Below are positions 1,194 to 46,028 of a stretch of DNA of 64,000 nt, piece by piece; positions within the stretch are counted from its first letter, which is position 1, and every line of letters starts with the position of its first letter. Source of the stretch: a virus (taxonomy: Duplodnaviria > Heunggongvirae > Uroviricota > Caudoviricetes); IMG/VR virus record IMGVR_UViG_3300036876_000145, positions 19,489 through 83,488 of that record; one strand, written 5' to 3'. A program made the position numbers and the translations under genes. Under the pieces are notes generated by a model. The model made no database searches. It was not told the DNA's origin and worked only from the letters and a program-made list of their open reading frames with translations.

Positions 1194-1628
1194 ATGTGTT
1201 TAAGTTCAGTTGAAAAAATATTCGACATCGCTACCAGAAGCTCAAAAAAAGCTTGGAAAATAGTTCGCTTTAATAAACCCATCCCACCAGCACCGAAAGG
1301 GAGTTATGAAACTTGTTGTTACCCTGCTTTTATTACTTCTTCTTGGCAAGTAGCCGAGGGAACGACGATAGAAAGTGTGGGGCAAGACCTCATTAACTTT
1401 TCATATAGTGCAGGATTCCATACCTTTGCCCGCAAAAAAGACGCCCAGAAAGAACTTTCCAAATGGAATGCAGAATATCCATATTATCAACTCATTCCAG
1501 TTGAAATTGATGAAATCCACACACAGGGACTTGATATGGGTATAAAACCTATGTCAGCAATAAAATTCGTCTGTATCCCACAAAGAGGAAATAGCCATGT
1601 GTTTATACACAATCACTCAAACACTTAA
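1194..1628 (+). CDS. MCL-family small protein (paralog 1 of 4)
   Basis: Starts Met-Cys-Leu. Shares AWKIV, GFHT(F/Y) and IPVEIDEI..G.D motifs with the ORFs at 23117 and 23543 and the fragment at 2532. Confidence 0.55.
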   Translation: MCLSSVEKIFDIATRSSKKAWKIVRFNKPIPPAPKGSYETCCYPAFITSSWQVAEGTTIESVGQDLINFSYSAGFHTFARKKDAQKELSKWNAEYPYYQLIPVEIDEIHTQGLDMGIKPMSAIKFVCIPQRGNSHVFIHNHSNT

Positions 1629-5343: not shown

Positions 5344-5849
5344 TATGATAGAAAAGCTGAAAGCCCACCCGAGGCCCAAAAGTGGATCTCGTGGGTCGGA
5401 AAGAAGACATTCTGATGCCCAAGAAAATGACCAAAGAGCGGCTGCTTCGTTTGGCCGTGGCGAAGGTGAATCGTCTCACTGATGATGAGTTGCACAATTT
5501 CGTTTTCAATATCAATTGCTGCCCGCACAAGAAGACACATCCAGTCGGCATGGACTCGTCCTGCGACGATTGCGGAGCGTGGGTCTAATGCCAAGGCTTA
5601 AGATAGGAACTGGATCATGGCCGTACAAACGGAGATGGCGGGACGGCCCTACTTGGGATTGGCTTTGCCGGGTATTCGGGCATCAAAAAGAATGGTATCA
5701 CTGGTATGCCAGTGCAGGGGACAAGTTGGGTACGGAAATTGCCCGTGCATTGGGCTGGGGAAGTGGCCGAATAAAACCGCATTGGCACCGACATGGGACT
5801 GATTCCGCGAACGGTTTCATTTGTGGCAGGTGCGGAAAGGCTGGTATAT

Positions 5850-6369
5850 GAATATCACACAGAAGCAGGCACGAGCCAATGAGGATGCGGTCTGGGCTGT
5901 CTACCCCAAAGCGACCTACTTTGGCGTTGATGCTAAGAAGAACTTTTCCCATCCCGAAAACTGTGTCTGTGAGGTATACAGATCAGACGCTCTCGACGCC
6001 CCCGTGATCGGCTCGGGCGACACTTACGAAGAAGCGTGGGCCGACGCCGTAGCAAAGTTACCCAACCCGAACCGTCACATTCCTCAACGGAGTAAATCAA
6101 ATGGGTCAACCGGACGAAAACGAAATCCAAGCACTGGTAAGCGGAGCAAACGGCTATCAGAAGTTGAAGATCTTGAAGATCTTCTTGTACTGTCTTATAT
6201 CACAATCGTATATCTCCAGGAATGGCTCAGAGATCTTGATTCAACTCAGTTTGATAAAGAAGGACTAACTCAACTAAAAGAAGCCGATGAAATTAAAGAA
6301 AGATTAAAAACAGTTCTAGAACAGCTTCAGGGTGATGCGCCGATGAATCCGCCGCAGGCTCGTGGTTGA
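5850..6369 (+). CDS. hypothetical protein
   Basis: ORF 5821-6369, start moved to MNITQKQ; basic central region. Confidence 0.4.
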
Positions 6370-6397
6370 CAAATTTTAGGTATCTTGTATCCTATTT

Positions 6398-6838
6398 ATG
6401 AAAACAAAAAAGAAAGCTAAAGCAAAAACTCAAAAAAAGGTGGTTATGGAAAAACATTTTGTAACATTTTTCAGCCCGGGTACATTTGTAGCAGAAACAA
6501 GCTGCTTATCTATTGATTCTTGGGATGTTGAAGAAGCCAAGAAAAAAGCTCGCGGGATCAAAGAACGTCATGACGCTGTACCTTATGGATTTAGGTTTTC
6601 TACTCGCAGCAGGGGAGTGGATGATTTGGACTCCAAAGAAACCAAAACAAGCGGGATGTATTACTTGGGCGGTAAGGTCGAGACTTTGAAACAAGTGAAA
6701 GCTCGCGCAACTAAAGACGATGCAATACTCGTCTCCAACATGGAATGTAACAACTGGAAGCGTATTGTTACTACCACGAATGGGTATCGATGGACTCAGC
6801 CTCTAAAAGATGAAGATAAAGTGGTGGATTGGTCTTAA
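6398..6838 (+). CDS. hypothetical protein
   Basis: 146-aa ORF with a lysine-rich N-terminus. Confidence 0.45.
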   Translation: MKTKKKAKAKTQKKVVMEKHFVTFFSPGTFVAETSCLSIDSWDVEEAKKKARGIKERHDAVPYGFRFSTRSRGVDDLDSKETKTSGMYYLGGKVETLKQVKARATKDDAILVSNMECNNWKRIVTTTNGYRWTQPLKDEDKVVDWS

Positions 6839-6886
6839 TACCATTTTTTTCTTATCTATAAACCGCTAGGTTCAGTATTAGGAGAC

Positions 6887-7372
6887 ATGGAAGAGTTTAA
6901 AAAAACAGGTGAGGAACGTGTATTTAAGGGCGGTGCGAGTAGAGACGCAGCGATAGGGAAAGGGGCACCACACTGGATGCCTTCTATTGCTCTTTTCCTT
7001 GTTTCTCGCATTTACGAGAACGGTAACATCCAAAGGGATAAACTCAACGGCGGCATCGGCAATGGGGATACTCGTAATTGGGAAAATGGAATGCCAATTA
7101 ATGAGTTGCTTGGTTCCGCCGAACGCCACATTCAGCGTTATCGAGAAGGAGATCGCAATGAACCCCACCTCCCCCAAGCCGCTTGGAATATTCTTAACGC
7201 CATAATGATGTCTGTTTGGATTTGGCTTGGTTACAGAGATGTTAGTTTCAATAATCTTCCCGATCACATCCACAATTGGAAACCTGGAGATCCTTCACCC
7301 TGCCCCTTAAGTCCCCAAGAAATAGAATGGTTGAAAGTACGTGGAATAGAAAAAAATAACACAACTCAGTAA
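6887..7372 (+). CDS. hypothetical protein
   Basis: 161-aa ORF. Confidence 0.45.
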   Translation: MEEFKKTGEERVFKGGASRDAAIGKGAPHWMPSIALFLVSRIYENGNIQRDKLNGGIGNGDTRNWENGMPINELLGSAERHIQRYREGDRNEPHLPQAAWNILNAIMMSVWIWLGYRDVSFNNLPDHIHNWKPGDPSPCPLSPQEIEWLKVRGIEKNNTTQ

Positions 7373-7416
7373 ATCCATAAAAACAGTGACTTTCTACTTC
7401 TTCTGTAGAAACCGTC

Positions 7417-10008
7417 ATGCCTAATCTTTTACAAAAACTTACTTATTTCGACCCGGAAACCAGTAGACAATTTGTCATTGGGGATAAGGGATTCGCCTGG
7501 AAACAAGCGGTAAAATCTCCCGAAGACTCAAAAGTAACTCGTCTGGTAGCTCAATACGGCTGGGAATTGAAGTACGGTACGGATACATTTTTGCTTTTTA
7601 AGCGCCCCAAGCAAAAAGGGGAATTAAATGTACTGCGAGGTACCAAACAATGGTTTTTGGACATGGGCGGGCCGGTTTATGAAGATACCCCCGGGGGAAC
7701 GGGATTAAAGAGCCTACAGAGGGCTCTAGAGGATAACCAGATGAATATATCAAAAGCGGCTAACCCCGCTGCTACAGCTGTTAATAACGCCGCAAAAGGC
7801 ACTCCAGGATTAAATAGACGCCCAGATTACGCAGAAGCTGATTCCATTGTTGCTTTGGATGGTGGGGTTAAAACAGGAAGTACGGGTTTGCCAGCTACTT
7901 TATATGTTACGAGCGCCGATTACAAAGGCATTACTCTAGAGAAATTTTCTTTTAGCCCAAATATCGAAAAAGCTAGGATATTTCCTCCTCTTATGGCTAA
8001 AAGTTTAAGCAATCAAATCAAAGGTAGATTTGGTGTCACTTCCCACATCATTTTAGCCTATAATTATGAGGAAATGTTTAAGTCTATACTTGCTTTAAAC
8101 CCTGAATCCAAGTTTTTGATAGATAAAGAAATTACATGGGCTAAGCGGAGTCTCAAAAAACAGGATCGAGTTATTTGGTTTTTGCGCTGGATCCGCTTGG
8201 CTATCATGCAAGAACTTTATCATGCCGCTGGAGCCGCTGGATCTGGTAGACCTGCTGAACCAACATCCCCAGGCGAGAAATCCAGAGAACAGATTTATAA
8301 AGAGCGAGTAAAGAATGTTCTAGATCAATACAAAAAAGACATGTCAGCAAAAGGGGGAAATCCAGATGCTGATAGTATGAGTATAGGAGATTTATCGACT
8401 ATACATGCAAATTTAGATCACTTTTATGGTTTGAATGTACCGGAGATCAATAATTATAGTCCGACAGTAGAAACTTGGACTGATTTACGACAACGATTTT
8501 CTAGCATTGAGCAGGCTTGGGCAGAAGCAGCAAAACGAGGACTTAAACCTAAAACAGAAGATAAAGTTTTTATTAAGTTTCCCGATGGTTGGGCTTGGTG
8601 GTTTTTACCTCGCTCTTCCTGTGACCAAGAAGCTAAAGCCATGGGTCACTGCGGAAATTCCCCTTTCGCCGGTAGAGAAGGTATCGGCATACTCAGTTTA
8701 CGCAGACCAGTTAAACACGGAAAAGATTTTTTGTGGGAACCTCATCTTACATTCATTCTTCATGAAGACCCACCAGGTGCTGACAGTGGAACTTTAGGGG
8801 AAATGAAGGGTAAAGGTAATGCAAAACCTACTCCTCAATACCATCCATATATTATGAAATTATTGGAAGATCATAGAATACAAGGCGTTGGCGGCGGTGG
8901 AATCTTAGCGTCTCACAATTTTTCTTTTTCTGATCTTACCCCTGAACAACAAGCCATCGTCAATAAAATTAATCCAGGCGTAGGAATGACCATCGCAGGA
9001 TATTATAAAGAACATGGAATGGATGGAAAGCTGTTGAAAAAAATCAAAGCTATTTTGGGTTTAGAAAGTGCTACATACGACCCAAAATACGGAGTAGCGG
9101 TTGCCTCTTGGCCTAATGAAGAAGAGTTCATTAAGAAAACAGGTGACAGTGAAGCTAAGAAAGCGTGGATGTTTGTTCAGACTGGTGAACACAACTATGA
9201 CAGCCCGGATATCGATGAACTCACGGACTTGCTTAACGGAATCAATGATCCGCAAATCCATAATATTGGTTTATCCCTCACTTATGATTTTCCAGTAGAA
9301 ATGCAATCATGGTATTCAAATTTCAACCCTAATGATAAAGTTGCGGTGAAATTGGCGCTTACAGATTTATATAATGCTTACATCGCTAAAGGGCAAAAAG
9401 TTTTTGACCAGGAAGTTGACAAACTCAAAAAATATTTAACTACTCAGGAAAATGAGATGAATGAAACGGGAGGATTCGCAAATCCTGAAGTTATACAAGA
9501 GATAAAAGAAAAATTAAAGGGTTACGATCAAAATAAAGTGTGGGATGCTGTGCCTGTACTACAAAAATTGCATGCTGCATATGTGGCTGGGGGACCAAAC
9601 CAAGCAGAGGTAAGGGCAAATATTAAAAAGAAAGTCCAAGAAGGCTTAAAAGATAAAGATAGGATCAAAATCACAACAACCACCGATGGTCGTTATTTGC
9701 AACTCATGGATGAAAAGAAACTGGTAAAAGATGCCCAAGGCCACCAAGACGCTGAAGGCACGGGAGGGTATTACGATACTCCCGAATTTCGCTGGTCATT
9801 CCCCTATGATTGGGATGAGTGGAACCCCGAAAGAACAAATAAGGCTGTAGCTAAACTTTTTGGCGAACCTTCTAAAAAACCATCAAGGAATGTGAAGCAA
9901 AAAAGACTGTTTCCTGAGCCAAAAACTAATGAAGATGCCGTGCGCAAAGGCATTGCAGTGTCAAGTTTTAGGAATCCCTTATTACAAAAAAGACTCATTT
10001 TTGAGTAG
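7417..10008 (+). CDS. large hypothetical protein (863 aa)
   Basis: Long uninterrupted ORF. A GHCGNS motif but no fold recognised. Lies upstream of the alarmone hydrolase / AAA / Pup-like genes. Confidence 0.7.
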   Translation: MPNLLQKLTYFDPETSRQFVIGDKGFAWKQAVKSPEDSKVTRLVAQYGWELKYGTDTFLLFKRPKQKGELNVLRGTKQWFLDMGGPVYEDTPGGTGLKSLQRALEDNQMNISKAANPAATAVNNAAKGTPGLNRRPDYAEADSIVALDGGVKTGSTGLPATLYVTSADYKGITLEKFSFSPNIEKARIFPPLMAKSLSNQIKGRFGVTSHIILAYNYEEMFKSILALNPESKFLIDKEITWAKRSLKKQDRVIWFLRWIRLAIMQELYHAAGAAGSGRPAEPTSPGEKSREQIYKERVKNVLDQYKKDMSAKGGNPDADSMSIGDLSTIHANLDHFYGLNVPEINNYSPTVETWTDLRQRFSSIEQAWAEAAKRGLKPKTEDKVFIKFPDGWAWWFLPRSSCDQEAKAMGHCGNSPFAGREGIGILSLRRPVKHGKDFLWEPHLTFILHEDPPGADSGTLGEMKGKGNAKPTPQYHPYIMKLLEDHRIQGVGGGGILASHNFSFSDLTPEQQAIVNKINPGVGMTIAGYYKEHGMDGKLLKKIKAILGLESATYDPKYGVAVASWPNEEEFIKKTGDSEAKKAWMFVQTGEHNYDSPDIDELTDLLNGINDPQIHNIGLSLTYDFPVEMQSWYSNFNPNDKVAVKLALTDLYNAYIAKGQKVFDQEVDKLKKYLTTQENEMNETGGFANPEVIQEIKEKLKGYDQNKVWDAVPVLQKLHAAYVAGGPNQAEVRANIKKKVQEGLKDKDRIKITTTTDGRYLQLMDEKKLVKDAQGHQDAEGTGGYYDTPEFRWSFPYDWDEWNPERTNKAVAKLFGEPSKKPSRNVKQKRLFPEPKTNEDAVRKGIAVSSFRNPLLQKRLIFE

Positions 10009-13225: not shown

Positions 13226-15322
13226 ATGGGTCTTCAAGAATACACCACAGCGCTAAACGCGAAACTAGAAAAAGCACGGGACGCTTATTACAAGAAGGGC
13301 GAACCCGTGATGTCCGATGCTGAATATGACGCTCAGGAAAAAGAGTTGGCGGATATAATATCGGCTAATCCTCAATTGAAGGTGTTCGCCCCTGTACTCC
13401 ATACAGTGGGTTCCGATGTAACGGCCTCTGGAAGAGTGAAGCACAGCCGTCCCATGCTCAGCATTGAGAACAAATACACTGTTGATGACTTTGTGGAATG
13501 GGCTAAGAAAATATGGGCAGGATATCCCGACGCCAAATTCTGCTTAGAGCCAAAATTTGATGGTGTGAGCGTAGAATTAAGGTATAGGCATGGAAAATTG
13601 CATCAAGCCGTTTCCCGCGGTACGGGCAGTGAAGGAGAAGATTGCACTTTACAGGTAATGGCGATCAAATCCATTCCAAAAACAGTACCTAATAGTTTTC
13701 CAAATGTGTTTGACATTCGGGGAGAAATGGTCATGCGGAATGACACCCTTGAACGTCTCAACGCTGAGGCCCAAAAATATGGGGGTAAAATTTATCAGTC
13801 CACCCGTAATCTAACAGCGGGTACCATGAAAAAGCAAGACGCTAAAATTGTAGCTAGTCGTGACCTTGAATATAGACCTTGGGAAGTGACAGGTTCAGAT
13901 TTAAATGATAGTGGGTTTGCCCGCTTGGATATGCTTGTTGATGCGGGGTTTGTCGCTCCCTTGGGAGAACTGGTAGAAGATGAAGCTTCACTACGAGCTG
14001 TTTTAGCGAAGAAACTTAAGGAGCGCACAACTAAACTTCGTGATATTCTTTCCTTGGAAACTGATGGCGTAGTCATTAAAGTAGATTCGAATGCTTTACG
14101 CACACAGTTAGGAGTTGCTTCTAAATATACCAACTGGCAAACCTGCTTCAAACCCCAATCTGCCTCTGGTACTACGTATCTACGCAGCATCGAATGGCAG
14201 GTAGGACGAACAGGAAAATTGTCTCCTGTTGCGGAATGTGACCCCGTGATACTGGCTTCCGCGAAGGTCGAACACGCCAGTCTTAACAACATCTCCTGGA
14301 TTAAAGAAAAAGGTTTGAAACTGGGGGCAAAGGTAGAAATGCTGCGATCCGGGGATGTGATCCCTCAAATCGTTCGTGTGATTGACGAAGGGGATGATGA
14401 AATCATTCCACCAACAAAATGTCCGGAATGCGCTGGAAAAGTTGTGGAGATGGATGAGGGCGGAGTAGGCATCATTCAACATTTTTGTACCAATCAAGCA
14501 TGCCCCGGTATTCTACGGGGGTATTTGGCTTTTATTGGTAGTAGGGATGTACTAGAAATCGATGGGTTGGGTCCAGAAGCAGCAAGAACACTAGTGAAAG
14601 AGGAAGGGATCCATGATCTGGCTGGGCTTTTTAATTTTTATAATAGATGCCAAGATAAAAGACTCTCCATGGATACAAATAAAGAATTTATCGCCTATGC
14701 TCGAATGATAGGATTTGATGCCACTCTTCCCAAAATGTTGGATTCCTTAGAGAAGGCTAAAACCGCTCCTTGGGAGCGTTGGATCAAAGCTTTGGGGATT
14801 CCTATGATTGGGGAAACTCATGGTAAAGCTTTGGTGACATTTTTTAAGCTCACCCCAGAGAGCTTCAAAGATTTATGGCAAATTACCCAAAACTTGGAAG
14901 AGAACAAAATTGAGGGTATAGGGCCGCAGAAAATAAAAGCTTTATCTGAATGGGGGGCGAACCCTGACAACAAAGTTTTGTGTTTGTCATTATTCAATTT
15001 AGGTGTGCGTCCTACTCCTCCGGAAACGCCTAAAATAGTAGCTGGGGCACCTCTAAGTGGTATTATTTTCTGCATTACAGGGGAGTTTGACGAAGATAGA
15101 AACTCTCTTATCAAGAAACTTGTTAGCTTAGGGGCCGAATCTAAAACTGGTGTAACCAAAAAAATAAATCTTTTGATCGTTGGTGATGACGCGGGAAAAA
15201 CTAAGTTGACTAAAGCCGCAGAATTAGGTATAAAACAAGTAGGGAAAGATTGGCTCGTTAAAACTTTGTCCGATAGCGGCATTAAAATGTCGCAAAATAA
15301 CTTTGTTCCAGAGCAGGCGTAA
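13226..15322 (+). CDS. ligA: NAD-dependent DNA ligase
   Basis: Ia domain YYKKGEPVMSDAEYD, adenylation KxDG (EPKFDGVSVEL), OB domain, Cys4 zinc finger CPECAGKV...CTNQACPG, HhH region, C-terminal BRCT. Confidence 0.9.
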   Translation: MGLQEYTTALNAKLEKARDAYYKKGEPVMSDAEYDAQEKELADIISANPQLKVFAPVLHTVGSDVTASGRVKHSRPMLSIENKYTVDDFVEWAKKIWAGYPDAKFCLEPKFDGVSVELRYRHGKLHQAVSRGTGSEGEDCTLQVMAIKSIPKTVPNSFPNVFDIRGEMVMRNDTLERLNAEAQKYGGKIYQSTRNLTAGTMKKQDAKIVASRDLEYRPWEVTGSDLNDSGFARLDMLVDAGFVAPLGELVEDEASLRAVLAKKLKERTTKLRDILSLETDGVVIKVDSNALRTQLGVASKYTNWQTCFKPQSASGTTYLRSIEWQVGRTGKLSPVAECDPVILASAKVEHASLNNISWIKEKGLKLGAKVEMLRSGDVIPQIVRVIDEGDDEIIPPTKCPECAGKVVEMDEGGVGIIQHFCTNQACPGILRGYLAFIGSRDVLEIDGLGPEAARTLVKEEGIHDLAGLFNFYNRCQDKRLSMDTNKEFIAYARMIGFDATLPKMLDSLEKAKTAPWERWIKALGIPMIGETHGKALVTFFKLTPESFKDLWQITQNLEENKIEGIGPQKIKALSEWGANPDNKVLCLSLFNLGVRPTPPETPKIVAGAPLSGIIFCITGEFDEDRNSLIKKLVSLGAESKTGVTKKINLLIVGDDAGKTKLTKAAELGIKQVGKDWLVKTLSDSGIKMSQNNFVPEQA

Positions 15323-17955: not shown

Positions 17956-19857
17956 ATGGCTGGACATGTTACCCCACAAGCGAAGGTTCTTTTGGTTATT
18001 GTTGGAGTTGTAGGACTCTGTTTCTTAGGTAAGACAGCGATGGAACGGGGCTGGATGCCAACTCCCAACATCATGAAGGCGATTGTCCCATCCCACATTT
18101 CACTTCCAGAAGTGAAAGATGCACAGGTTGCGAATGTTGTACCGGCACCCCTACCACAAAGCACACCGGCAACCGTTTCTAATACGCCTATCATCGGAGA
18201 AGTTTGGGAATGGAATGCTATGTTAGGTCATCTATTGGCAAACGGCGGTAAACATACAACCGCTGGTTCCCTGATGGCAAAGCGTAATGTTAATCTGACA
18301 CTTAAGAGGCAAGATCTCACCGATCAAATGCAATTGGATTTGATCGCTTGTGCCAGCCAGCTAGCGGGGGGGTCTACGGATTGTTCCACCGGAGCGAACT
18401 ATGTTATTATCATGGGCGACGGTGCGGGGCAATTTGCAGCTGCTACCAATCCAAAGCTTTATGACTTGGACTGCAAGGGAAAGCCAAAGGGCTGCGTTTC
18501 GAAGTATACGCTCAAGGTTATCGCCGCAACTGGATATAGCCGCGGAGAAGATGCCTTTTTGGCCCCTCCGAATGTAAAGAAAGATTCCAAGTCTTTCAAT
18601 CAATCCCCTATGCCTGGGTCGCAAGATTCCAAGGGTCAGGAAATTACTGGCCTATTGGTTGAAGGCGTTCTTCGTGATGGTGATTGGAACATCGCCTTAA
18701 AGTGGGCTGGTGATAACGCCATCCCCAATAACCCGGACGAAAAGACTTTCGATCCAGATGCAGTTAACTGGATCAATGCTCCGGATTACAACACCGCCGC
18801 TACAGATTATGTCGCCGGTAAGTGCGAAGATCGTAAACTCGTGCATGCGGGGCGTCCTACAGGGGATATGGTGCATGTCTGTGTAAACTCCCTTGTGACT
18901 TGGACACCCGGAGATGTTGTAGCCGTGACGAAGAAGGGCGGCGTAGTGAAGGTTGTTTCTTCCAAACAAAATCGCAGTCAGATGCCCGCTGTGATTATTG
19001 GTCCGGCAAAGTTTTTCCAAGACAATCGGGAAGAAATCACTAACATGCTCGCTGCTACTTTCGAAGGTGGCGACCAAGTGAAGGCGTTTGACTTGGCTCT
19101 GCACAAGGCGGCAGCTATTTCATCCGATGTTTATGACGATAAGGGTGATGCTCCAAACGAAAACGGAGACTACTGGTACCGTTATTACAAGGGTGTTCCG
19201 TACAAGGATCCCACCACGGGGCAGATAGTCGAACTAGGCGGTTCGTCTGTGAACAACTTGGATGATAACCTTATCTTGTTTGGTATGAAGGATAAGGGGA
19301 ATGACAACTTCCGCTCAACTTATACGCTCTTTGCGAACATTGATGTACAGCAATACCCAACTTTGTTCAAAGAGACTCCAATTCCTGATGTGAAGCTTGT
19401 GGAAGATAAGTCTTTCATCCAGGGAGCGAAGGATATACTCAGCGGGGATAACAACACCGGCTCCGAAGCAGCGGAACCAGCGTATGAACAGCAAGCTACG
19501 GGAAGTGTCATTGGTCAGCGTGCCTATGATATCAACTTCAAGACGAATGAAGCGAAACTTACCGAGGCTGGTGAGGCACAGTTGAAGCAATTGAAGGATG
19601 GCTGGGCAATCACCGGAGCGTTTATTCAGGTCGATGGCTATACAGACAGCACAGGCAATGAAGATCACAACCTTGAACTATCAAAGGGACGTGCGGCCGC
19701 TGTGGTTACATACCTGCACACAAACTGGCCGACAAACTTCCCGGCAAAGCGTTTCAAAGCCACGGGTCACGGTTCTCAAGACCCCGTAGCTTCTAACGCT
19801 ACAGCCGAAGGGAAGGCTCAAAATCGTAGGGTTACGATTACCCTGCTAGGCAAGTAA
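17956..19857 (+). CDS. OmpA-family protein (N-terminal TM anchor, C-terminal OmpA/MotB peptidoglycan-binding domain)
   Basis: Start set at MAGHV, which has an aggag Shine-Dalgarno. C-terminus ...GYTDSTGNEDHNLELSKGRAAAVVTYL is an OmpA C-like domain. Confidence 0.75.
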   Translation: MAGHVTPQAKVLLVIVGVVGLCFLGKTAMERGWMPTPNIMKAIVPSHISLPEVKDAQVANVVPAPLPQSTPATVSNTPIIGEVWEWNAMLGHLLANGGKHTTAGSLMAKRNVNLTLKRQDLTDQMQLDLIACASQLAGGSTDCSTGANYVIIMGDGAGQFAAATNPKLYDLDCKGKPKGCVSKYTLKVIAATGYSRGEDAFLAPPNVKKDSKSFNQSPMPGSQDSKGQEITGLLVEGVLRDGDWNIALKWAGDNAIPNNPDEKTFDPDAVNWINAPDYNTAATDYVAGKCEDRKLVHAGRPTGDMVHVCVNSLVTWTPGDVVAVTKKGGVVKVVSSKQNRSQMPAVIIGPAKFFQDNREEITNMLAATFEGGDQVKAFDLALHKAAAISSDVYDDKGDAPNENGDYWYRYYKGVPYKDPTTGQIVELGGSSVNNLDDNLILFGMKDKGNDNFRSTYTLFANIDVQQYPTLFKETPIPDVKLVEDKSFIQGAKDILSGDNNTGSEAAEPAYEQQATGSVIGQRAYDINFKTNEAKLTEAGEAQLKQLKDGWAITGAFIQVDGYTDSTGNEDHNLELSKGRAAAVVTYLHTNWPTNFPAKRFKATGHGSQDPVASNATAEGKAQNRRVTITLLGK

Positions 19858-23116: not shown

Positions 23117-23539
23117 ATGTGTTTACTAAGCGTTACAAAAAATCATCGTAACCCAATCAAGGGACCTATTATCGCTTGGAAGATAGTTGAAGTAATATCG
23201 GGTAAAGTTTTTACCCCGTTTCAACAGTTCCGCATAACTAAAAAATGGAAGTCTGCTTGGAAAGGCTACCTGGCCGCAAATGATAGTTGCTGCACTCGCT
23301 ACAAAAGTGGGTTTCACTGTTATACTACACAACAAGATGCTGCAAAGGCGCGTGTATTGTATATGTATATGAAAACAAAAAAAGTGATCCCAGTTCAAAT
23401 CGATGAAATTACAACTACCGGCATTGATGGCACAACTTACGAAATTAAGCAAGCGATGCTAAAAAACTATGTTGCTCAAAAAATTCGATTGATGCCCCAA
23501 CCAGCAAAGAAAAAGAAAAATAAACTGAAGAGAGGATAA
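23117..23539 (+). CDS. MCL-family small protein (paralog 2)
   Basis: MCLLSV..., AWKIV, GFHCY, IPVQIDEITTTGIDG, NYVAQKIRLMP plus a basic tail. Confidence 0.55.
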   Translation: MCLLSVTKNHRNPIKGPIIAWKIVEVISGKVFTPFQQFRITKKWKSAWKGYLAANDSCCTRYKSGFHCYTTQQDAAKARVLYMYMKTKKVIPVQIDEITTTGIDGTTYEIKQAMLKNYVAQKIRLMPQPAKKKKNKLKRG

Positions 23540-23542
23540 GTT

Positions 23543-24049
23543 ATGTGTCTCGCTCGCATACTTGAAAATCATGAAGATCAGCCAATCCCAGGTCCTATAA
23601 AAGCTTGGAAGATTGTCTTACGGGGTAAGAAAGCACTCTCCTGTTTTAAGAACAATTCTATAACGATCACCTGGCAAACAGATACGCCAGGTGATAGAAT
23701 CGCTTCTTGGGAGTGGGATGAAAAAGGCTTGACCGTCGTCCTCGAAATTCGCGCCGGAACCGGCGGCGACGAGGCTACGCTCTTCGTAGGTGGTTGGAAA
23801 ACTTATAAAACAGGATTCCATACTTACTTCACTAAGGAAGCAGCTCAAGAAGCTTTGAATTCTTGGAACAAGAATTCGGATGATGCATATGGTACATGTA
23901 AAATTATTCCCGTGGAGATAATGGATATCACAACTATTGGAACTGATGGTAGTGTGTCAGACTCTTGCGATCTTAAAAATTATGTCTCGCAAAAGATCAG
24001 ACTATATCCGATAAAAATGAAAGCGAAGCCCAAAACCAAGCGAAAATAG
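23543..24049 (+). CDS. MCL-family small protein (paralog 3)
   Basis: MCLARI..., AWKIV, GFHTYF, IPVEIMDITTIGTDG, NYVSQKIRLYP plus a basic tail; has a ~50-aa insertion. Confidence 0.55.
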   Translation: MCLARILENHEDQPIPGPIKAWKIVLRGKKALSCFKNNSITITWQTDTPGDRIASWEWDEKGLTVVLEIRAGTGGDEATLFVGGWKTYKTGFHTYFTKEAAQEALNSWNKNSDDAYGTCKIIPVEIMDITTIGTDGSVSDSCDLKNYVSQKIRLYPIKMKAKPKTKRK

Positions 24050-24133
24050 TTGCAATATGTTGATTTTAAAAGGTTTAAAAATACACAAAATAGGTGTTCT
24101 CAATGTATACTATAGGTGGAGGGGACACCGCTA

Positions 24134-24844
24134 ATGGAACTCAGCGTAGCAGAAGTGCTTGCCAAGAAACTGATGCACGAATTCAATCTCTTCCCGCGCT
24201 GCTGGAGATTCGAGTTTGATAATTCTAAAAGTCGCTTCGGATGCTGTCATACTAGAAAAAAATTGATTACTCTCAGCCGTCATATTGTTCAACTCAACTC
24301 CCAAATAGATGTTGAAGATACCATCCGTCACGAAATCGCCCATGCTCTGGTAACAGAAGATAAATTAACTTTCCACGCAAAAAACCCTTTTTCCAGTGAT
24401 TTCGGGCGCAGAAGCATATCGCGTAGAGACATCCACGGGGCGGATTGGAAAGCAAAGTGCCTTATTACCGGTGCTAAACCGGAGCGCTGCTACGATGGCG
24501 CTGTTGTTGTAGCACCCAAAGGCAACTGGACAGCTACTTGCCCGAATTGTGGTAAGGTGGTTCATTATCATCGTCGTTCCACTAAAAGTAGCCCCACCGC
24601 ATGCTATGAATGCTGCAAAAATTTCAATCACGGCAGATGGTCAGAAAAGTTCATTTTTATCTATCGACACAGAGATTCGATTGGAGAGCACATCCCCGCT
24701 AATGCACCCAAACCAGCACCACAGACTCAAACGCCTGACCACAGGGCTGCAATTGAGCGGATGAAGGAGCAGATACGACTAGCTGAAAAACAGGAGATTT
24801 TAGACCGTATCATAGCATTAGAAACCCAATTGACCAGGAATTAA
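24134..24844 (+). CDS. SprT-like zinc metalloprotease-domain protein
   Basis: HEIAHALV zincin motif; Cys pairs CPNCGK...CYECCKNF; start placed at MELSV after a ggtggagggg Shine-Dalgarno. Confidence 0.65.
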   Translation: MELSVAEVLAKKLMHEFNLFPRCWRFEFDNSKSRFGCCHTRKKLITLSRHIVQLNSQIDVEDTIRHEIAHALVTEDKLTFHAKNPFSSDFGRRSISRRDIHGADWKAKCLITGAKPERCYDGAVVVAPKGNWTATCPNCGKVVHYHRRSTKSSPTACYECCKNFNHGRWSEKFIFIYRHRDSIGEHIPANAPKPAPQTQTPDHRAAIERMKEQIRLAEKQEILDRIIALETQLTRN

Positions 24845-26370: not shown

Positions 26371-26691
26371 ATGAAGAGAAAAAATAAACCACTGTTGTCC
26401 ATTGAGAACGCACGAGAATTTAACGCCAAAATAGAGTGGGAAGGAAGTTTGGATTATGTTTTGCAGAACTGGGATTTTAAAGAATTCAAAGATAAAAAAT
26501 TCAATAGTTTGCGAAAAGCGTACATTAAGGCCCACCAGGATATGATGGATTATTGCTATCTGGATAGAGTTCTAGAAGATACCACCGAACCATCAGATCT
26601 CGATGAATCTGACCGCTGCCCTTCTTGTGGAGATGCGCTGGAATTAAACGGTACATGTTATACATGTACGGGTGAGCAAAATGAGAATTAA
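26371..26691 (+). CDS. hypothetical protein with C-terminal zinc ribbon
   Basis: 106 aa; CPSCGD...CYTC. Confidence 0.45.
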   Translation: MKRKNKPLLSIENAREFNAKIEWEGSLDYVLQNWDFKEFKDKKFNSLRKAYIKAHQDMMDYCYLDRVLEDTTEPSDLDESDRCPSCGDALELNGTCYTCTGEQNEN

Positions 26692-26947
26692 GCTCATCGT
26701 TAGAAAAAATTTGCACATGAGTGAAAATAAGCAATCCGCTCAATGTGTACATGCAGCTCTAGGGCTTTACAAAAAAAATCCGCAGGATCATTGGTCATGC
26801 GTGGTGCTGGATGCTAGCGATAAAAAATTCGAGGAAGCAAAAGAAGCGCATCCAGAGGGATATGTAGTGACCGATGCGGGCTACACGGAAATTCCAGCGG
26901 GCAGTGAAACTGTTTTGGCTTTCTATGAGGATGACCCCAGAGAATAA
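26681..26947 (+). CDS. peptidyl-tRNA hydrolase, PTH2 family
   Basis: MRIKLIVRKNLHMSENKQSAQCVHAALG resembles the PTH2 N-terminal signature (KMVLVVRTDL...GKIAAQCSHA). Sits inside the tRNA cluster. Confidence 0.65.
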   Translation: MRIKLIVRKNLHMSENKQSAQCVHAALGLYKKNPQDHWSCVVLDASDKKFEEAKEAHPEGYVVTDAGYTEIPAGSETVLAFYEDDPRE

Positions 26948-37860: not shown

Positions 37861-37952
37861 ACTTTGAGCGAGTTACGTGGAAGGCAACTTTGTTCATGGA
37901 GGGCAACGACCAAAGCGACTCGCTCAATAAGTTTTGAAGTTTGAAGTCATGA

Positions 37953-38030
37953 TACACGTAGCTCAATTGGTAGAGCAGCGCCATTAACGGCGCTGATGTG
38001 GGTTCGATCCCCACCGTGAGGAAGGCTTCT
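37953..38030 (+). tRNA. tRNA-like gene with a non-canonical anticodon loop (attaac) and a poorly paired acceptor end
   Basis: D-arm tagctcaattggtagagc, anticodon hairpin gcgcc-attaac-ggcgc, T-arm gtgggttcgatccccac. Only about 4 acceptor base pairs. Confidence 0.3.
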
Positions 38031-41461: not shown

Positions 41462-42778
41462 ATGATGAAAAAAGAAATGACCCTTTTGGGTCTAGTCGCC
41501 GCTACGTATTTTATGGTAAGCGGAGGCCCGTACGGTCTAGAAGACCTAATTGCTCAAACTGGTTACGGATGGGGAATACTCATTCTTTGCTTAGTGCCCT
41601 TCCTGTGGGCACTGCCAACCGCTATGATGGTTGGTGAACTCGCCTCTGCGATACCGAATCGCGGGGGTTTTTATATTTGGGTGCAACGTGCCCTTGGAAA
41701 ATTTTGGGGATTCCAGGAAGCTTGGCTTTCATTAGCGGCTTCCATATTTGATATGGGAATCTACCCGCTACTTTTTATTTCTTACCTGGGTGTATTGGCT
41801 CCAAGTTTCACCGCAGGGTGGCACGGCTCGCTTATAGCAACGGCTCTAATCGCTGTTTGCGTATTGTGGAACCTTCGGGGTGCCAAAGCTGTAGGAAACG
41901 GCTCTGTGGCGTTAGGAGCCCTTATGGTGAGCCCTTTTGTGATTATCACCCTAGCAGCTCTCCGACACGCCCATCTGACCCATGTTACGGGTCATCCTCA
42001 CGCCGTCAGTCTTATGGGCGGTATTATGGTCGCTATGTGGAACTTCATGGGTTGGGATAACGCCAGCACCATAGCCACAGAAGTCAAAAAACCTCAACGA
42101 ACCTACCCCATCGCCATGATGGTGACTATGCTGTTGATTGTTGGAAGCTATATTCTCCCCGTAGCAGCGTCTTGGTATCTGGGAGTACCCCTGTCTGCCT
42201 GGTCAACAGGGAGTTGGGCGACTATTGGTGAAATCATCGCGGGTTCTTGGGTACGAGACGCCATTGTACTGGGTGGAATGATCAGTGCAGCGGGGATGTT
42301 GAACTCCCTCATGATGAGCTATTCTCGTATTCCCCCAGCGCTGGCTGAAGATCATTATCTGCCTCGCATATTCACAAAAATAAATGCAGTGTCAGTTCCC
42401 ATGATAGCTTTATTTGCCTTGGCGACAGTTTGGGCAACAGCGTTCGGTTTGAATTTTGACCGTCTGGTGATGCTGGATATTTTACTTTATGGAACGAGTC
42501 TTATTCTGGAGTTTATCGCTTTAGTGGTATTGCGTTGGAAAGAACCAGATTTGCCTCGACCTTTTCGTGTGCCTGGGGGAAAATTGGGCGCTATCTTGGT
42601 AGGAGTTTGCCCAACGATACTTCTCTTCGCGGCCGGTATTTTTGGGGATCATAACGGACTATTGCTAGGCTTAGGCATGATTCTATCCGGGGTGGGTGCT
42701 TGGTGTGGAATTCATGGATTTCGTGCCGCTAAATATGAAAAAATCGCTCCCACTTTCTCAACTACCACGATCCCCTAA
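41462..42778 (+). CDS. APC-superfamily amino acid/polyamine permease
   Basis: 12-TM pattern; N-terminal GGPYGLEDLI...GELASAIPNRGGFYIWVQRALG typical of amino acid permeases. Confidence 0.85.
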   Translation: MMKKEMTLLGLVAATYFMVSGGPYGLEDLIAQTGYGWGILILCLVPFLWALPTAMMVGELASAIPNRGGFYIWVQRALGKFWGFQEAWLSLAASIFDMGIYPLLFISYLGVLAPSFTAGWHGSLIATALIAVCVLWNLRGAKAVGNGSVALGALMVSPFVIITLAALRHAHLTHVTGHPHAVSLMGGIMVAMWNFMGWDNASTIATEVKKPQRTYPIAMMVTMLLIVGSYILPVAASWYLGVPLSAWSTGSWATIGEIIAGSWVRDAIVLGGMISAAGMLNSLMMSYSRIPPALAEDHYLPRIFTKINAVSVPMIALFALATVWATAFGLNFDRLVMLDILLYGTSLILEFIALVVLRWKEPDLPRPFRVPGGKLGAILVGVCPTILLFAAGIFGDHNGLLLGLGMILSGVGAWCGIHGFRAAKYEKIAPTFSTTTIP

Positions 42779-44037: not shown

Positions 44038-44543
44038 ACTATCAAAATAAACTTCAAAAAATACAAAAAGAGTTTGTGCTGGGAATAAAAGATAAATTCA
44101 CCTGTATGACTAAATTTGAGCAAGTTTTATGGGAATACGGTCTTCTACCAAAACAAGAAGAGTTAGATAGGGAAATGTCTAATGAACATTTTTCTCGCTT
44201 GATACAAATGGCTATGGAACATACAGATACTCATTCAGATCGAGATCCTGAAAATAGTGAAGAATTGGATAATGAATACGCAGCGGCTTTTTATTCTGTA
44301 AGAGTTTGCCCAATTTGTCATATTACGCAATCCCGTCCATTAGTTGGTAGCGTGAGTGATTTAGCTCGAAAAATAACTGCATTAAACCCTCCTCGTTGTG
44401 AACGCTGCGCCATTGATTGGATGAAAAAACATCTAGAGAATTCCCCAAAAGGTGAAAATGTAGATTTGATAAAACCACTTAGCAAAGAAGAGAAAAAATT
44501 TTTTGATGAGTATGAGAAGGAAATGGAAGACTTTGAGGTTTAG
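44034..44543 (+). CDS. hypothetical zinc-binding protein
   Basis: 169 aa; CPICH...CERCA. Confidence 0.45.
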   Translation: MNYQNKLQKIQKEFVLGIKDKFTCMTKFEQVLWEYGLLPKQEELDREMSNEHFSRLIQMAMEHTDTHSDRDPENSEELDNEYAAAFYSVRVCPICHITQSRPLVGSVSDLARKITALNPPRCERCAIDWMKKHLENSPKGENVDLIKPLSKEEKKFFDEYEKEMEDFEV

Positions 44544-45232
44544 TGGTATTATTATGGTATATGAATATGAACGGCTCGACGAGCGCAATCCCGCCGCTTT
44601 GCGGTGGGTTAGCGAGTGCCTTGGTTCTCGACGTCGCAGTTATGGCGGACCCACAGAATGGTACCGTTCAACATCTCGGATTCAACCCAGCGGCAACCAA
44701 GTACAACTGGAGACGCAGGAGAGCCAACCTCAAGAGTGCAGGCAAGCGTCGTACACTGCGCCAACTGAGCCGTAAGCAATCACGACGTACAACACATGAG
44801 AATCACATCGTGTCTAAGCAAATAGTTTCCTATGCCGTAAAGCATCACCGCGCAATTGCCGTAGAAAACCTTGAGACAGTTCGTAAGCCGAACAGCAAGA
44901 TTCGGAAGTACGTCGAGAAGTCTCAATGGTCTTTCTATCAGTTGTTGTCGTTCCTCAAGTACAAAGCGGCTTTGCACGGCGTTATCATCGCGGAAGTCAA
45001 TCCTGCATACACCTCGCAGAATTGCTCTCGCTGTGGACAGCGGAACACTCCAAACGGCAAGAAGTACGTTTGCGAGCATTGCGGACACACCGACCATAGA
45101 GATGCTAACGCGGCATTCAACATCGCCAAGCGCGGTATTGAGTTCCTATCTATGGGCGGCACTCACGACTCAGAGCGCGTGAGCGGGGCTGTATTGGTGA
45201 CGCCCTATTCTGGAGGACCAGCATATGCTTAG
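44543..45232 (+). pseudogene. IS200/IS605-family TnpB (OrfB) remnant: C-terminal RuvC-II/III plus zinc finger only
   Basis: IAVENLE (RuvC-II), CSRCGQ...CEHCGHTDHRDANAAFNIAKRG (zinc finger plus RuvC-III). The N-terminal ~170 aa and the RuvC-I GIDLG Asp are absent (HLGFNP). GC-rich. Confidence 0.55.
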
Positions 45233-45305
45233 CATAATGTCACGGTTCGAAAGAATCCCAGAGTTCTACTCTGGGAGCATCAAATCGAATTTTAAGGAGA
45301 TAATT

Positions 45306-46028
45306 ATGATCAGCCCACTTCCGGAAATGCTTGAAACTTTAGGGAAAATGCTAGCACCTGGGATGACAGGAAAATTTCTTGACAGCTTTGCCGCCAATCT
45401 CTGCAAACTTCACGATGTAAAGCCAGCTTTCTTGGGGTATAAACCCCCCAATTTTAGCGGCAAAGAAGGGTTCCCCAATACAATTTGTGTCTCCATAAAT
45501 GATGAAGTAATTCATGGTATCCCATCGGATAGGAAATTTGAGGAAGGAGATGTTATAAAACTTGATATGGGAATCGAGAAAGACGGGGAGTTTGACGATG
45601 GAGCGATTACCGTACTTTGTGGTACAGTAGATGATGAAGGGCGCATACAAGGGTGCTCTGCGACCGCTAGGAAGCTTGTAGCAGCGACTAAGGAAGCTCT
45701 TGCCGCTGGGGTGCAGCAAGCCAAGGCAGGGAACACAACCCACGATATCGCCAAGGCTGTGGAGACGGTAGCTAAAAATCATGATCTTCATGTAGTTCAT
45801 GGTTATGGAGGACACGGTATTGGAAATCAACTACACATGGAACCTCATATCCCGAATGAAGAAGATGGGTCAATCGCAAAAAAATTGGAGTCCGGAACCA
45901 GGGTAGCGATCGAACCCATGCTGGCTACAAATCATGGATTTACTTATGTAGCAGCTGATGGTTGGACGGTAAAGCTTCGTAACGGAGGACTGGCCGCTCA
46001 TTTTGAGCAGACGGTAGAGATAAAATAA
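45306..46028 (+). CDS. map: methionine aminopeptidase, type I
   Basis: FLGYK...FP, metal ligands in GDVIKLDMG / DDGAITV / HGYGGHGIGNQLHMEP / IEPM; start set at MISPL after aaggag. Confidence 0.85.
   Translation: MISPLPEMLETLGKMLAPGMTGKFLDSFAANLCKLHDVKPAFLGYKPPNFSGKEGFPNTICVSINDEVIHGIPSDRKFEEGDVIKLDMGIEKDGEFDDGAITVLCGTVDDEGRIQGCSATARKLVAATKEALAAGVQQAKAGNTTHDIAKAVETVAKNHDLHVVHGYGGHGIGNQLHMEPHIPNEEDGSIAKKLESGTRVAIEPMLATNHGFTYVAADGWTVKLRNGGLAAHFEQTVEIK

Follow-up and report, generated by a model that had tools for sequence, protein, structure and literature searches.

What are the small proteins that open with Met-Cys-Leu (MCL) and recur within a single phage genome? The question is raised by a 64,000-nucleotide stretch of a Caudoviricetes virus (IMG/VR record IMGVR_UViG_3300036876_000145, positions 19,489 to 83,488; hereafter the window, to which coordinates refer unless another sequence is named), in which the first-pass annotation had described four paralogues of this kind. 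We find that they belong to a previously undescribed family, the only catalogued relative being a PHROG without an assigned function and no description having turned up in the literature searched. Cys2 and His67 are the only universal side chains among 67 members, and on a structure model the family likely combines an ADP-ribosyltransferase (ART)-like fold, at grey-zone scores, with a new conserved core centred on the N-terminal cysteine. The copies and pieces in the window are listed below, with E values for the family hidden Markov model (HMM) where given.

1194–1628, + strand: family copy 1, 144 residues, with MCL, AWKIV, GFHTF and IPVEIDEI; HMM E 9e-29
1597–1721, + strand: 5' part of disrupted copy 2 (MCLYTITQTLNPPDHKVRKAWKIVTGRNSSPFYHIILTSKWS...), from the alignment with the intact allele of locus L080
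1722–2486, no strand: insertion breaking copy 2, from the comparison with the L080 allele
2487–2732, + strand: 3' part of disrupted copy 2 (VTGFHSYFSKKDADAMVQAITPYHVDGQYSVVPVEIKDITYIGTDGT...NYVSNKIRLLPIKKKKNKKKGK), an 81-residue fragment; HMM E 5e-16
23117–23539, + strand: family copy 3, 140 residues, the best-behaved member
23543–24049, + strand: family copy 4, 168 residues, 3 nucleotides 3' of copy 3
23741–23791, + strand: peptide LEIRAGTGGDEATLFVG within copy 4, resembling a release factor (Pfam PCRF E 4e-4; NCBIfam RF1 E 3e-5; tblastn)

Paired genes in the window and a wider phage family

The genes are laid out as two tandem pairs, copy 1 with its disrupted partner and copy 3 with copy 4. 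The open reading frames (ORFs) at 1194–1628, 23117–23539 and 23543–24049 each begin at the first start codon following a stop, open MCL and have AWKIV, GFH(T/C)(Y/F) and IPVEI..IT.G.DG in common; at pairwise identities of 28–40%, the window copies match the family HMM at E values of 1e-27 to 1e-37, far beyond chance, and their paralogy stands. The full set of motifs first ascribed to them holds for copies 3 and 4 but not for copy 1: NYV.QKIRL and the Lys-rich tail occur only in the 23117 and 23543 products and the fragment at 2532, and the degenerate C terminus of copy 1 has its G.DG loop lost or shortened and is without the basic tail. A protein identical to copy 1 is indexed in 149 blocks of a public assembly collection.

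The count of four members needs a similar amendment. The 66-residue ORF at 2532–2732 is a real family fragment, the ATG-initiated remainder of a frame that is open from 2487 and reads VTGFHSYFSKKDADAMVQ..., but a fifth piece had been missed. This piece, the ORF at 1597–1770, begins MCLYTITQTLNPPDHKVRKAWKIV, overlaps the final 32 nucleotides of copy 1 and stays open to 1770 within foreign sequence. Alignment with L080, a 2,985-base-pair (bp) metagenome contig of the same phage that encodes an uninterrupted 136-residue allele, identifies the 1597–1770 and 2487–2732 pieces as halves of one gene. The second gene of pair 1 is a pseudogene.

The product of copy 3 served as the query both for the homologue search and for the structure model. 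Word-indexed protein searches returned only 1 and 7 proteins, and phmmer had to be run exhaustively against 1.84 billion representative proteins (cut-off E ≤ 1e-3). Among the 41 matches, 38 were full-length family proteins, all opening MC(L/I), and 33 of these 38 align from residue 1; of the other three, two were pieces of the query and one (P0029, 1164 residues with six matching stretches, Ig-like and eukaryotic in look) was a spurious match to a repeat protein, which was set aside. Pooling the phmmer matches with copies derived from contigs gave 67 distinct full-length members, single-domain proteins of 119–187 residues (median 142); part of this set came through a DNA pattern requiring ATG-TGY-YTN, and the phmmer and paralogue subsets alone are unbiased for the start. 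Cys2 and Gly102 are present in 67/67 members, His67, Gly65 and Leu3 in 66/67, and Lys22 and Tyr62 in 63/67, while mean column identity apart from the near-invariant residues is about 26%. Cys2 and the histidine of GFH, on whose conservation in wider homologues the first-pass proposal of a catalytic pair had been staked, are kept even in a branch at 12–18% identity (below).

The start itself is corroborated in several ways. Contig copies found with the HMM, independently of their N terminus (four in L009, three in L012, and those in L073 and in Xanthomonas phages), also open MCL. A Shine-Dalgarno sequence of the GGAG/AGGA type lies 5–10 nucleotides 5' of ATG-TGY-YTN at 14 starts (four in the window and 10 from six other lineages); for copy 1 it is a GGAG 8 nucleotides 5' of the ATG. 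Since different codons are used for Cys and Leu, MCL is conserved at the protein level. Because every start checked is preceded by a Shine-Dalgarno-like sequence, Met-Cys-Leu is, as read from these sequences, the genuine N terminus; together with the phmmer alignments that run from residue 1, this upholds the start first claimed rather than one further downstream. It also corrects the annotation of public records for two of the three copies in phage Xoo-sp13 (L107, MN047793; 7104–7538 and 8001–8414) and the first of the three in L012 (5969–6397), which had been called from internal positions (7203, 8187 and 6101, respectively) and have the conserved MCL start with its Shine-Dalgarno sequence upstream of the called one. 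The Lys tail fared differently: proposed as a family trait hinting at nucleic-acid binding, it is present in 13/67 members, an acidic tail being present in 7/67, and because so few carry it the tail is a feature of a lineage and not of the family.

No member was found outside phages or phage-like contigs, contexts being judged from gene content. Across 185,579 species genomes the degenerate DNA pattern gave nine matches (eight in Veillonella, one in Pedobacter), none fitting the family HMM, and in metagenomes it gave 71, most of which did not fit it either; these were treated as false positives. Plasmids yielded no match, and 50,697 phage records yielded no DNA-level match to the pair and only noise in tblastn with two members. 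No model in Pfam, NCBIfam or PADLOC covers the conserved domain of any member examined (in PADLOC, seven members had no match at E up to 1), in agreement with the earlier remark that the family was not recognised, and the sole meaningful Pfam or NCBIfam match is to the release-factor-like insert of the 168-residue copy. A PDB sequence search with the family profile pointed only weakly to RNA recognition motif (RRM) proteins (cS22, ELAV; E 0.04–1.6), a link that we rejected as a chance likeness of GFHVF..dA..A to the RNP1 motif.

The catalogued relative is phrog_13450, which includes XacN1 ORF073 (BBA65221.1) and Xoo-sp13 genes 62–64, the Xanthomonas-phage genes matching at E 3e-47. ORF073 opens MCLDIDV.. 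and has VYKRL and VGLHAFFTKD, the three tandem Xoo-sp13 genes all open MCL (two of them having been annotated with later starts), and the four copies read from these two phages keep the MCL start, WK and the histidine of GLH. Stenotrophomonas phages CM1 and RAS14 match over query residues 20–136 only, their N termini lying outside the matched region. The 23117 product reaches phrog_13450 at E 0.012 (residues 2–87 on profile positions 2–91) and the 1194 product at E 0.26; hhalign between the branches (A2 versus A6) gives E 1.7e-5 and a probability of 79%, with MCL, WK, (T/S)P(F/Y) and G(F/L)H in register. A Foldseek search of BFVD with the model returned as best matches paralogue clusters from two phages (E 6e-6 to 2e-3), the top accessions apparently belonging to XacN1 and Xoo-sp13. 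Members of phrog_13450 are all carried by large tRNA-rich phages; the four copies read from XacN1 and Xoo-sp13 share with the family their size, MCL start, (V/I)-(W/Y)-K strand, (S/T)-P-(Y/F), G-(L/F)-H-A-F, the invariant glycine of the C-terminal hairpin and tandem triplication. They differ in their low identity to it (12–18%), in the replacement of G.DG by G.N.E and of Tyr62 by Val or Ile, and in a C-terminal helix region that stands in place of NxVA..IRL. By comparison at the sequence level, phrog_13450 appears to be a sister branch or distant relative, and the window proteins are probably not members of it.

A likely ADP-ribosyltransferase-like fold with a putative Cys2/His67 centre

The AlphaFold2 model, built from a 41-sequence alignment, has a predicted local distance difference test score (pLDDT) of 94.6 and a predicted template modelling score (pTM) of 0.85. 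It comprises strands at residues 3–14, 18–27, 30–32, 51–53, 61–63 and 66–69, a helix at 72–81, a hairpin at 89–104, a second helix at 108–113 and a strand at 116–125. The only consistent structural neighbours of this model are ART-fold proteins, namely the NADase toxins Tne2 and Tse6, Tpt1/KptA, RES toxins and PARPs; the ART-fold structures compared also included BC2332/2aua, TNT-type NADases, Arr, pertussis- and cholera-type toxins, AcrIF11 and DarT, and the scores lie in the grey zone. On this model, the fold is likely ART-like.

Our preferred reading, held tentatively and at somewhat less than even confidence, is that the family consists of fast-diversifying effectors on an ART-like scaffold with a putative Cys2/His67 centre. 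Any methionine aminopeptidase (MetAP) would remove Met1, and Cys2, heading strand β1, would become the free N terminus. Cys2 and His67, possibly with Tyr62 and Asp104, would then make up the functional centre of an ART-like scaffold that has been remodelled with loss of the canonical catalytic Glu. The ligand would be a nucleotide of the nicotinamide adenine dinucleotide (NAD+)/ADP-ribose type or a nucleic-acid-linked substrate, and the proteins would serve host takeover or counter-defence as early or accessory effectors, the variable loops and tails giving paralogues different targets.

Several results weigh against this reading. Foldseek found nothing significant in the PDB, and the ART models of Pfam and NCBIfam gave no match for 41 members at E up to 10, nor did any profile link the family to an ART family. 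The H-Y-E, R-S-E and H-H-h catalytic sets are absent, with no Glu or Gln conserved among the 67 members and different residues at the candidate Glu positions, and Lys22 gives way to Gly or Ala in the L012 clade. NAD+ genes (below) neighbour the family in only 2 of about 13 independent contexts, and large phages commonly carry NAMPT. The family thus differs from the ART superfamily in having neither sequence nor profile similarity to it and no counterpart of its canonical catalytic set; conversely, the invariant N-terminal Cys is not known to have a counterpart in any ART family.

A rival idea is that the proteins are genuine NAD+-consuming ADP-ribosyltransferases or NAD+ glycohydrolases, in which Cys2 would be merely structural or a site of auto-modification. 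The motifs would map onto such an enzyme, with Lys22 as the β1 arginine, G-F-H-x-(F/Y)-T as the β2 'STS'/'Y' motif and helix, and Asp104 of G.DG as the catalytic Glu. Yet the family has no conserved Glu or Gln and no ART Pfam match even at E 10, the L012 clade is without Lys22, and the Xanthomonas-phage branch has Asn or another residue in place of Asp104. Nor does this idea account for Cys2 as the most conserved side chain, and we regard it as unlikely.

The cysteine itself invites comparison with enzymes of other folds. The first-pass annotation had suggested that Cys2 and the GFH histidine form a pair as in N-terminal-nucleophile (Ntn) or papain-like enzymes. The invariance of the two residues, together with the nature of Cys as a MetAP-permissive second residue, agrees with that suggestion, but the model resembles neither fold: the four-layer αββα architecture of Ntn-hydrolases with its N-terminal nucleophile is not seen, nor is the papain-like arrangement of a Cys at a helix N terminus and a His on a strand, Cys2 heading a β-strand rather than a helix. 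Taken literally, as a cysteine peptidase or hydrolase of either fold, the suggestion is extremely improbable.

A parallel is offered by SRAP proteins (HMCES, E. coli YedK) and class II glutamine amidotransferases, whose nucleophile is a Cys2 exposed by MetAP; the thiazolidine chemistry of SRAP is established. Like these proteins, the family has an invariant Met-Cys start, a Cys heading a β-strand and a conserved His partner, and it could be imagined as an SRAP-like covalent trap in which the amine and thiol of Cys2 form a thiazolidine with an aldehyde (an abasic DNA or RNA site, or open-chain ADP-ribose), His67 and Asp104 act as His160 and Glu105 of YedK/HMCES, and an SprT-like protease clears the adducts. 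In its favour are the invariant Cys2 at a strand head, the invariant His and a near-invariant acidic residue, the basic tails of all full-tailed copies of the window phage (13/67 overall) and the SprT-like gene directly downstream (24116–24844). The MCGR start, the fold and the Cys2/Glu/His triad of SRAP (PF02586) were, however, not found in the family, and we consider such a trap very unlikely.

The BFVD search also brought up an RIIB protein, at a probability of 0.94 and E 0.11, and DUF7666 proteins, with probabilities of 0.97 and 0.80 at E ~0.2. The C-terminal domain of T4 rIIB (PF26926) resembles the family in motif order, with YAWKVV, CSRGLHVCS and then VVKVKVHPRDVV (a V-K-V-K-V hairpin), but it is an internal domain and so is without an N-terminal Cys, having instead its own invariant Cys five residues before the His. 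Alignment with hhalign was not significant, either for T4 rIIB alone (E 0.005) or for a 10-sequence rIIB profile (E 0.03, probability <2%); neither DUF7666 nor PF26926 matched the family in the Pfam scan, and the structure predicted for the rIIB C-terminal domain had a pLDDT of 38. Kinship with rIIB or DUF7666 is statistically unsupported and not established, and it was given zero weight in our verdict. rIIB counteracts RexAB by a mechanism that is not known (PMC10312443).

A reading that joins several of these strands makes the family a new N-terminal-Cys enzyme or covalent trap on an ART-like scaffold and a free-standing relative of the rIIB C-terminal domain. Once Met1 is gone, the amine and thiol of Cys2, together with His67, would attack or capture an electrophile derived from NAD+/ADP-ribose or from an abasic site, as an S-glycosyl or thiazolidine adduct, thereby neutralising immunity linked to NAD+ or to nucleic-acid damage. 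We hold this to be quite unlikely.

Tandem arrays, a broken gene and variable loops

Tandem arrays of two to five copies recur in the family, in L009 (three plus one), L012 (three), L060 (at least five), L073 (two) and Xoo-sp13 (three). In L060 (Ga0193738_1007910, 3.5 kb) tRNA-Cys and tRNA-Trp lie among the copies, at least five in number, of which two look degenerate and are without an MCL start. Decay and variation are also seen: a pseudogene in the window stands beside an intact allele elsewhere, L060 holds degenerate copies, and loops and tails vary. Such tandem arrays, pseudogenes and variable loops appear to resemble those of gene families engaged in host–virus conflict.

The proteins might instead be a non-catalytic binder (a decoy, an inhibitor or a small-molecule sponge) directed against host defence, with Cys2 and His67 forming a Zn, Ni or Fe clip or a ligand pair and the tandem paralogues binding different host proteins or signals. 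Binding surfaces diverge among paralogues, however, and an N-terminal Cys and one His that are absolute across branches of less than 20% identity are more typical of chemistry than of such surfaces; nor is there another conserved Cys or His to complete a structural metal site. We regard a binder of this sort as unlikely.

In the broken copy 2, about 48 bp of the intact gene of L080 are replaced in the window by about 766 bp (1722–2486), which carry a tRNA-Lys(CTT) at 1817–1894 and reach a G+C content of 0.61, against about 0.38 in the flanks. Two ORFs of the insertion (1923–2096 and 2093–2434) have no family and no Pfam match, and for the insertion as a whole Rfam reported only the tRNA and no phage DNA match was found. 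The end of the insertion (~2425–2483) resembles, by eye, the 3' half of a tRNA, and this likeness suggests that the insertion is a tRNA-associated mobile or recombination cassette. The majority of relatives have a version of the insertion that is 193 bp longer, with a second tRNA-Lys. Three alleles are seen at this one site in the phage population, namely the intact gene of L080 (2272–2682), the 766-bp insertion with one tRNA-Lys(CTT) in the window, and a 959-bp insertion with two tRNA-Lys(CTT) in most relatives (L017, 4560–5520).

Copy 4 has an insertion of about 28 residues in the variable loop that precedes GFH. Within this insertion lies LEIRAGTGGDEATLFVG, which agrees at 14 of 17 residues with LEVRAGTGGDEAALFAG, the motif of E. 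coli release factor 1 (RF1); no release-factor gene was found within the window. The RF1-like peptide may have been acquired as a gene fragment, or the variable loop may present it as a mimic.

Gene neighbourhoods and what they suggest

Contigs of the window phage come from metagenomes of peat and wetland and reach 178 kb; the phage encodes RlaP, a PNKP fragment and 21 tRNAs. Other genes that we located in the window are as follows.

29–874: Thg1-like tRNA-His guanylyltransferase, directly 5' of pair 1
13226–15322: NAD+-dependent DNA ligase
24116–24844, + strand: SprT-like metalloprotease, directly 3' of pair 2
26672–26947: PTH2 peptidyl-tRNA hydrolase
30675–33155: 826-residue protein with major-vault-protein shoulder and Vault_3 domains
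41462–42778: amino-acid permease
45225–46028, + strand: type I methionine aminopeptidase (Peptidase_M24), E 4e-32

The tRNA genes lie between 25394 and 40866, all on the + strand, and include four tRNA-Ser, five tRNA-Arg and four tRNA-Lys. For one of them (37952–38022; Rfam tRNA score 44.5 bits) ARAGORN could not assign the anticodon ('ta'); it could be a suppressor or have an odd anticodon loop. The adjacency of the SprT-like gene to pair 2 was discarded as a functional clue, not being conserved in other phages.

The first-pass annotation had tied the MCL proteins to the MetAP encoded by the same element. That gene is real, although the start proposed for it (45306) is internal to the ORF. 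Nothing was seen to link it to the family beyond the co-encoding, which is a fact of the window. Cys at position 2 permits removal of the initiator Met by any MetAP, the host's included, and a dedicated phage enzyme is therefore unneeded. The MetAP region is itself rearranged. In a close relative (L015, 13110–14383) a 364-residue ADP-ribosylglycohydrolase (PF03747) lies directly 5' of the MetAP gene; in the window this segment (44572–45278) is replaced by a fragment of TnpB (Cas12f1-like TNB; ORF 44543–45232), and the MetAP has a different, longer N terminus (267 residues, against 249 in the L015 relative).

Elsewhere the family keeps company with genes of NAD+ and RNA metabolism. In L009, three copies (5411–9238) are flanked by a NAMPT-type gene (E 1e-134) on one side and a gene with weak NMNAT-like matches on the other, and in L029 both a NAMPT-type and an NMNAT-like gene are found within 11 kb; NAMPT and NMNAT are the two enzymes of a phage pathway of NAD+ salvage and reconstitution. 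Both loci, like the ADP-ribosylglycohydrolase gene of the L015 relative, count in favour of the preferred reading, though weakly as regards NAD+. A fourth L009 copy (13576–14085), with a long acidic tail, is near RlaP and RNA ligase genes, the gene content of this locus comprising NAMPT, RNA ligases, RlaP, Nudix and HD. L012 holds an integrase, a PD-(D/E)XK nuclease and a Gad2-family gene. At other loci the family adjoins an HNH-RNA ligase, a 5'-3' exonuclease, an R2K ATP-grasp protein, a methyltransferase and RNase H, and further neighbours across the contexts include Thg1 and tRNA arrays. Members in the window, L009, L050, L060 and Xoo-sp13 have tRNAs nearby and those in L012, L024, L025 and L029 do not, so that the family is not restricted to tRNA-rich settings, a possibility that had been raised at first pass.

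Distant members in the cultured jumbo phages XacN1, Xoo-sp13, CM1 and RAS14 open the proposed role of Cys2 and His67 to genetic and biochemical tests. Should the Cys2/His67 centre prove catalytic, it would represent a new active-site solution on an ADP-ribosyltransferase scaffold and would join the few classes of enzyme that use as nucleophile a residue exposed by MetAP; were the kinship with rIIB to prove true, the family would provide the first mechanistic handle on rII-type counter-defence. Given its setting among genes for NAD+ salvage, RNA repair and tRNAs, and the signs of an arms race that it bears, the family is a candidate host-takeover or counter-defence effector of large environmental phages.

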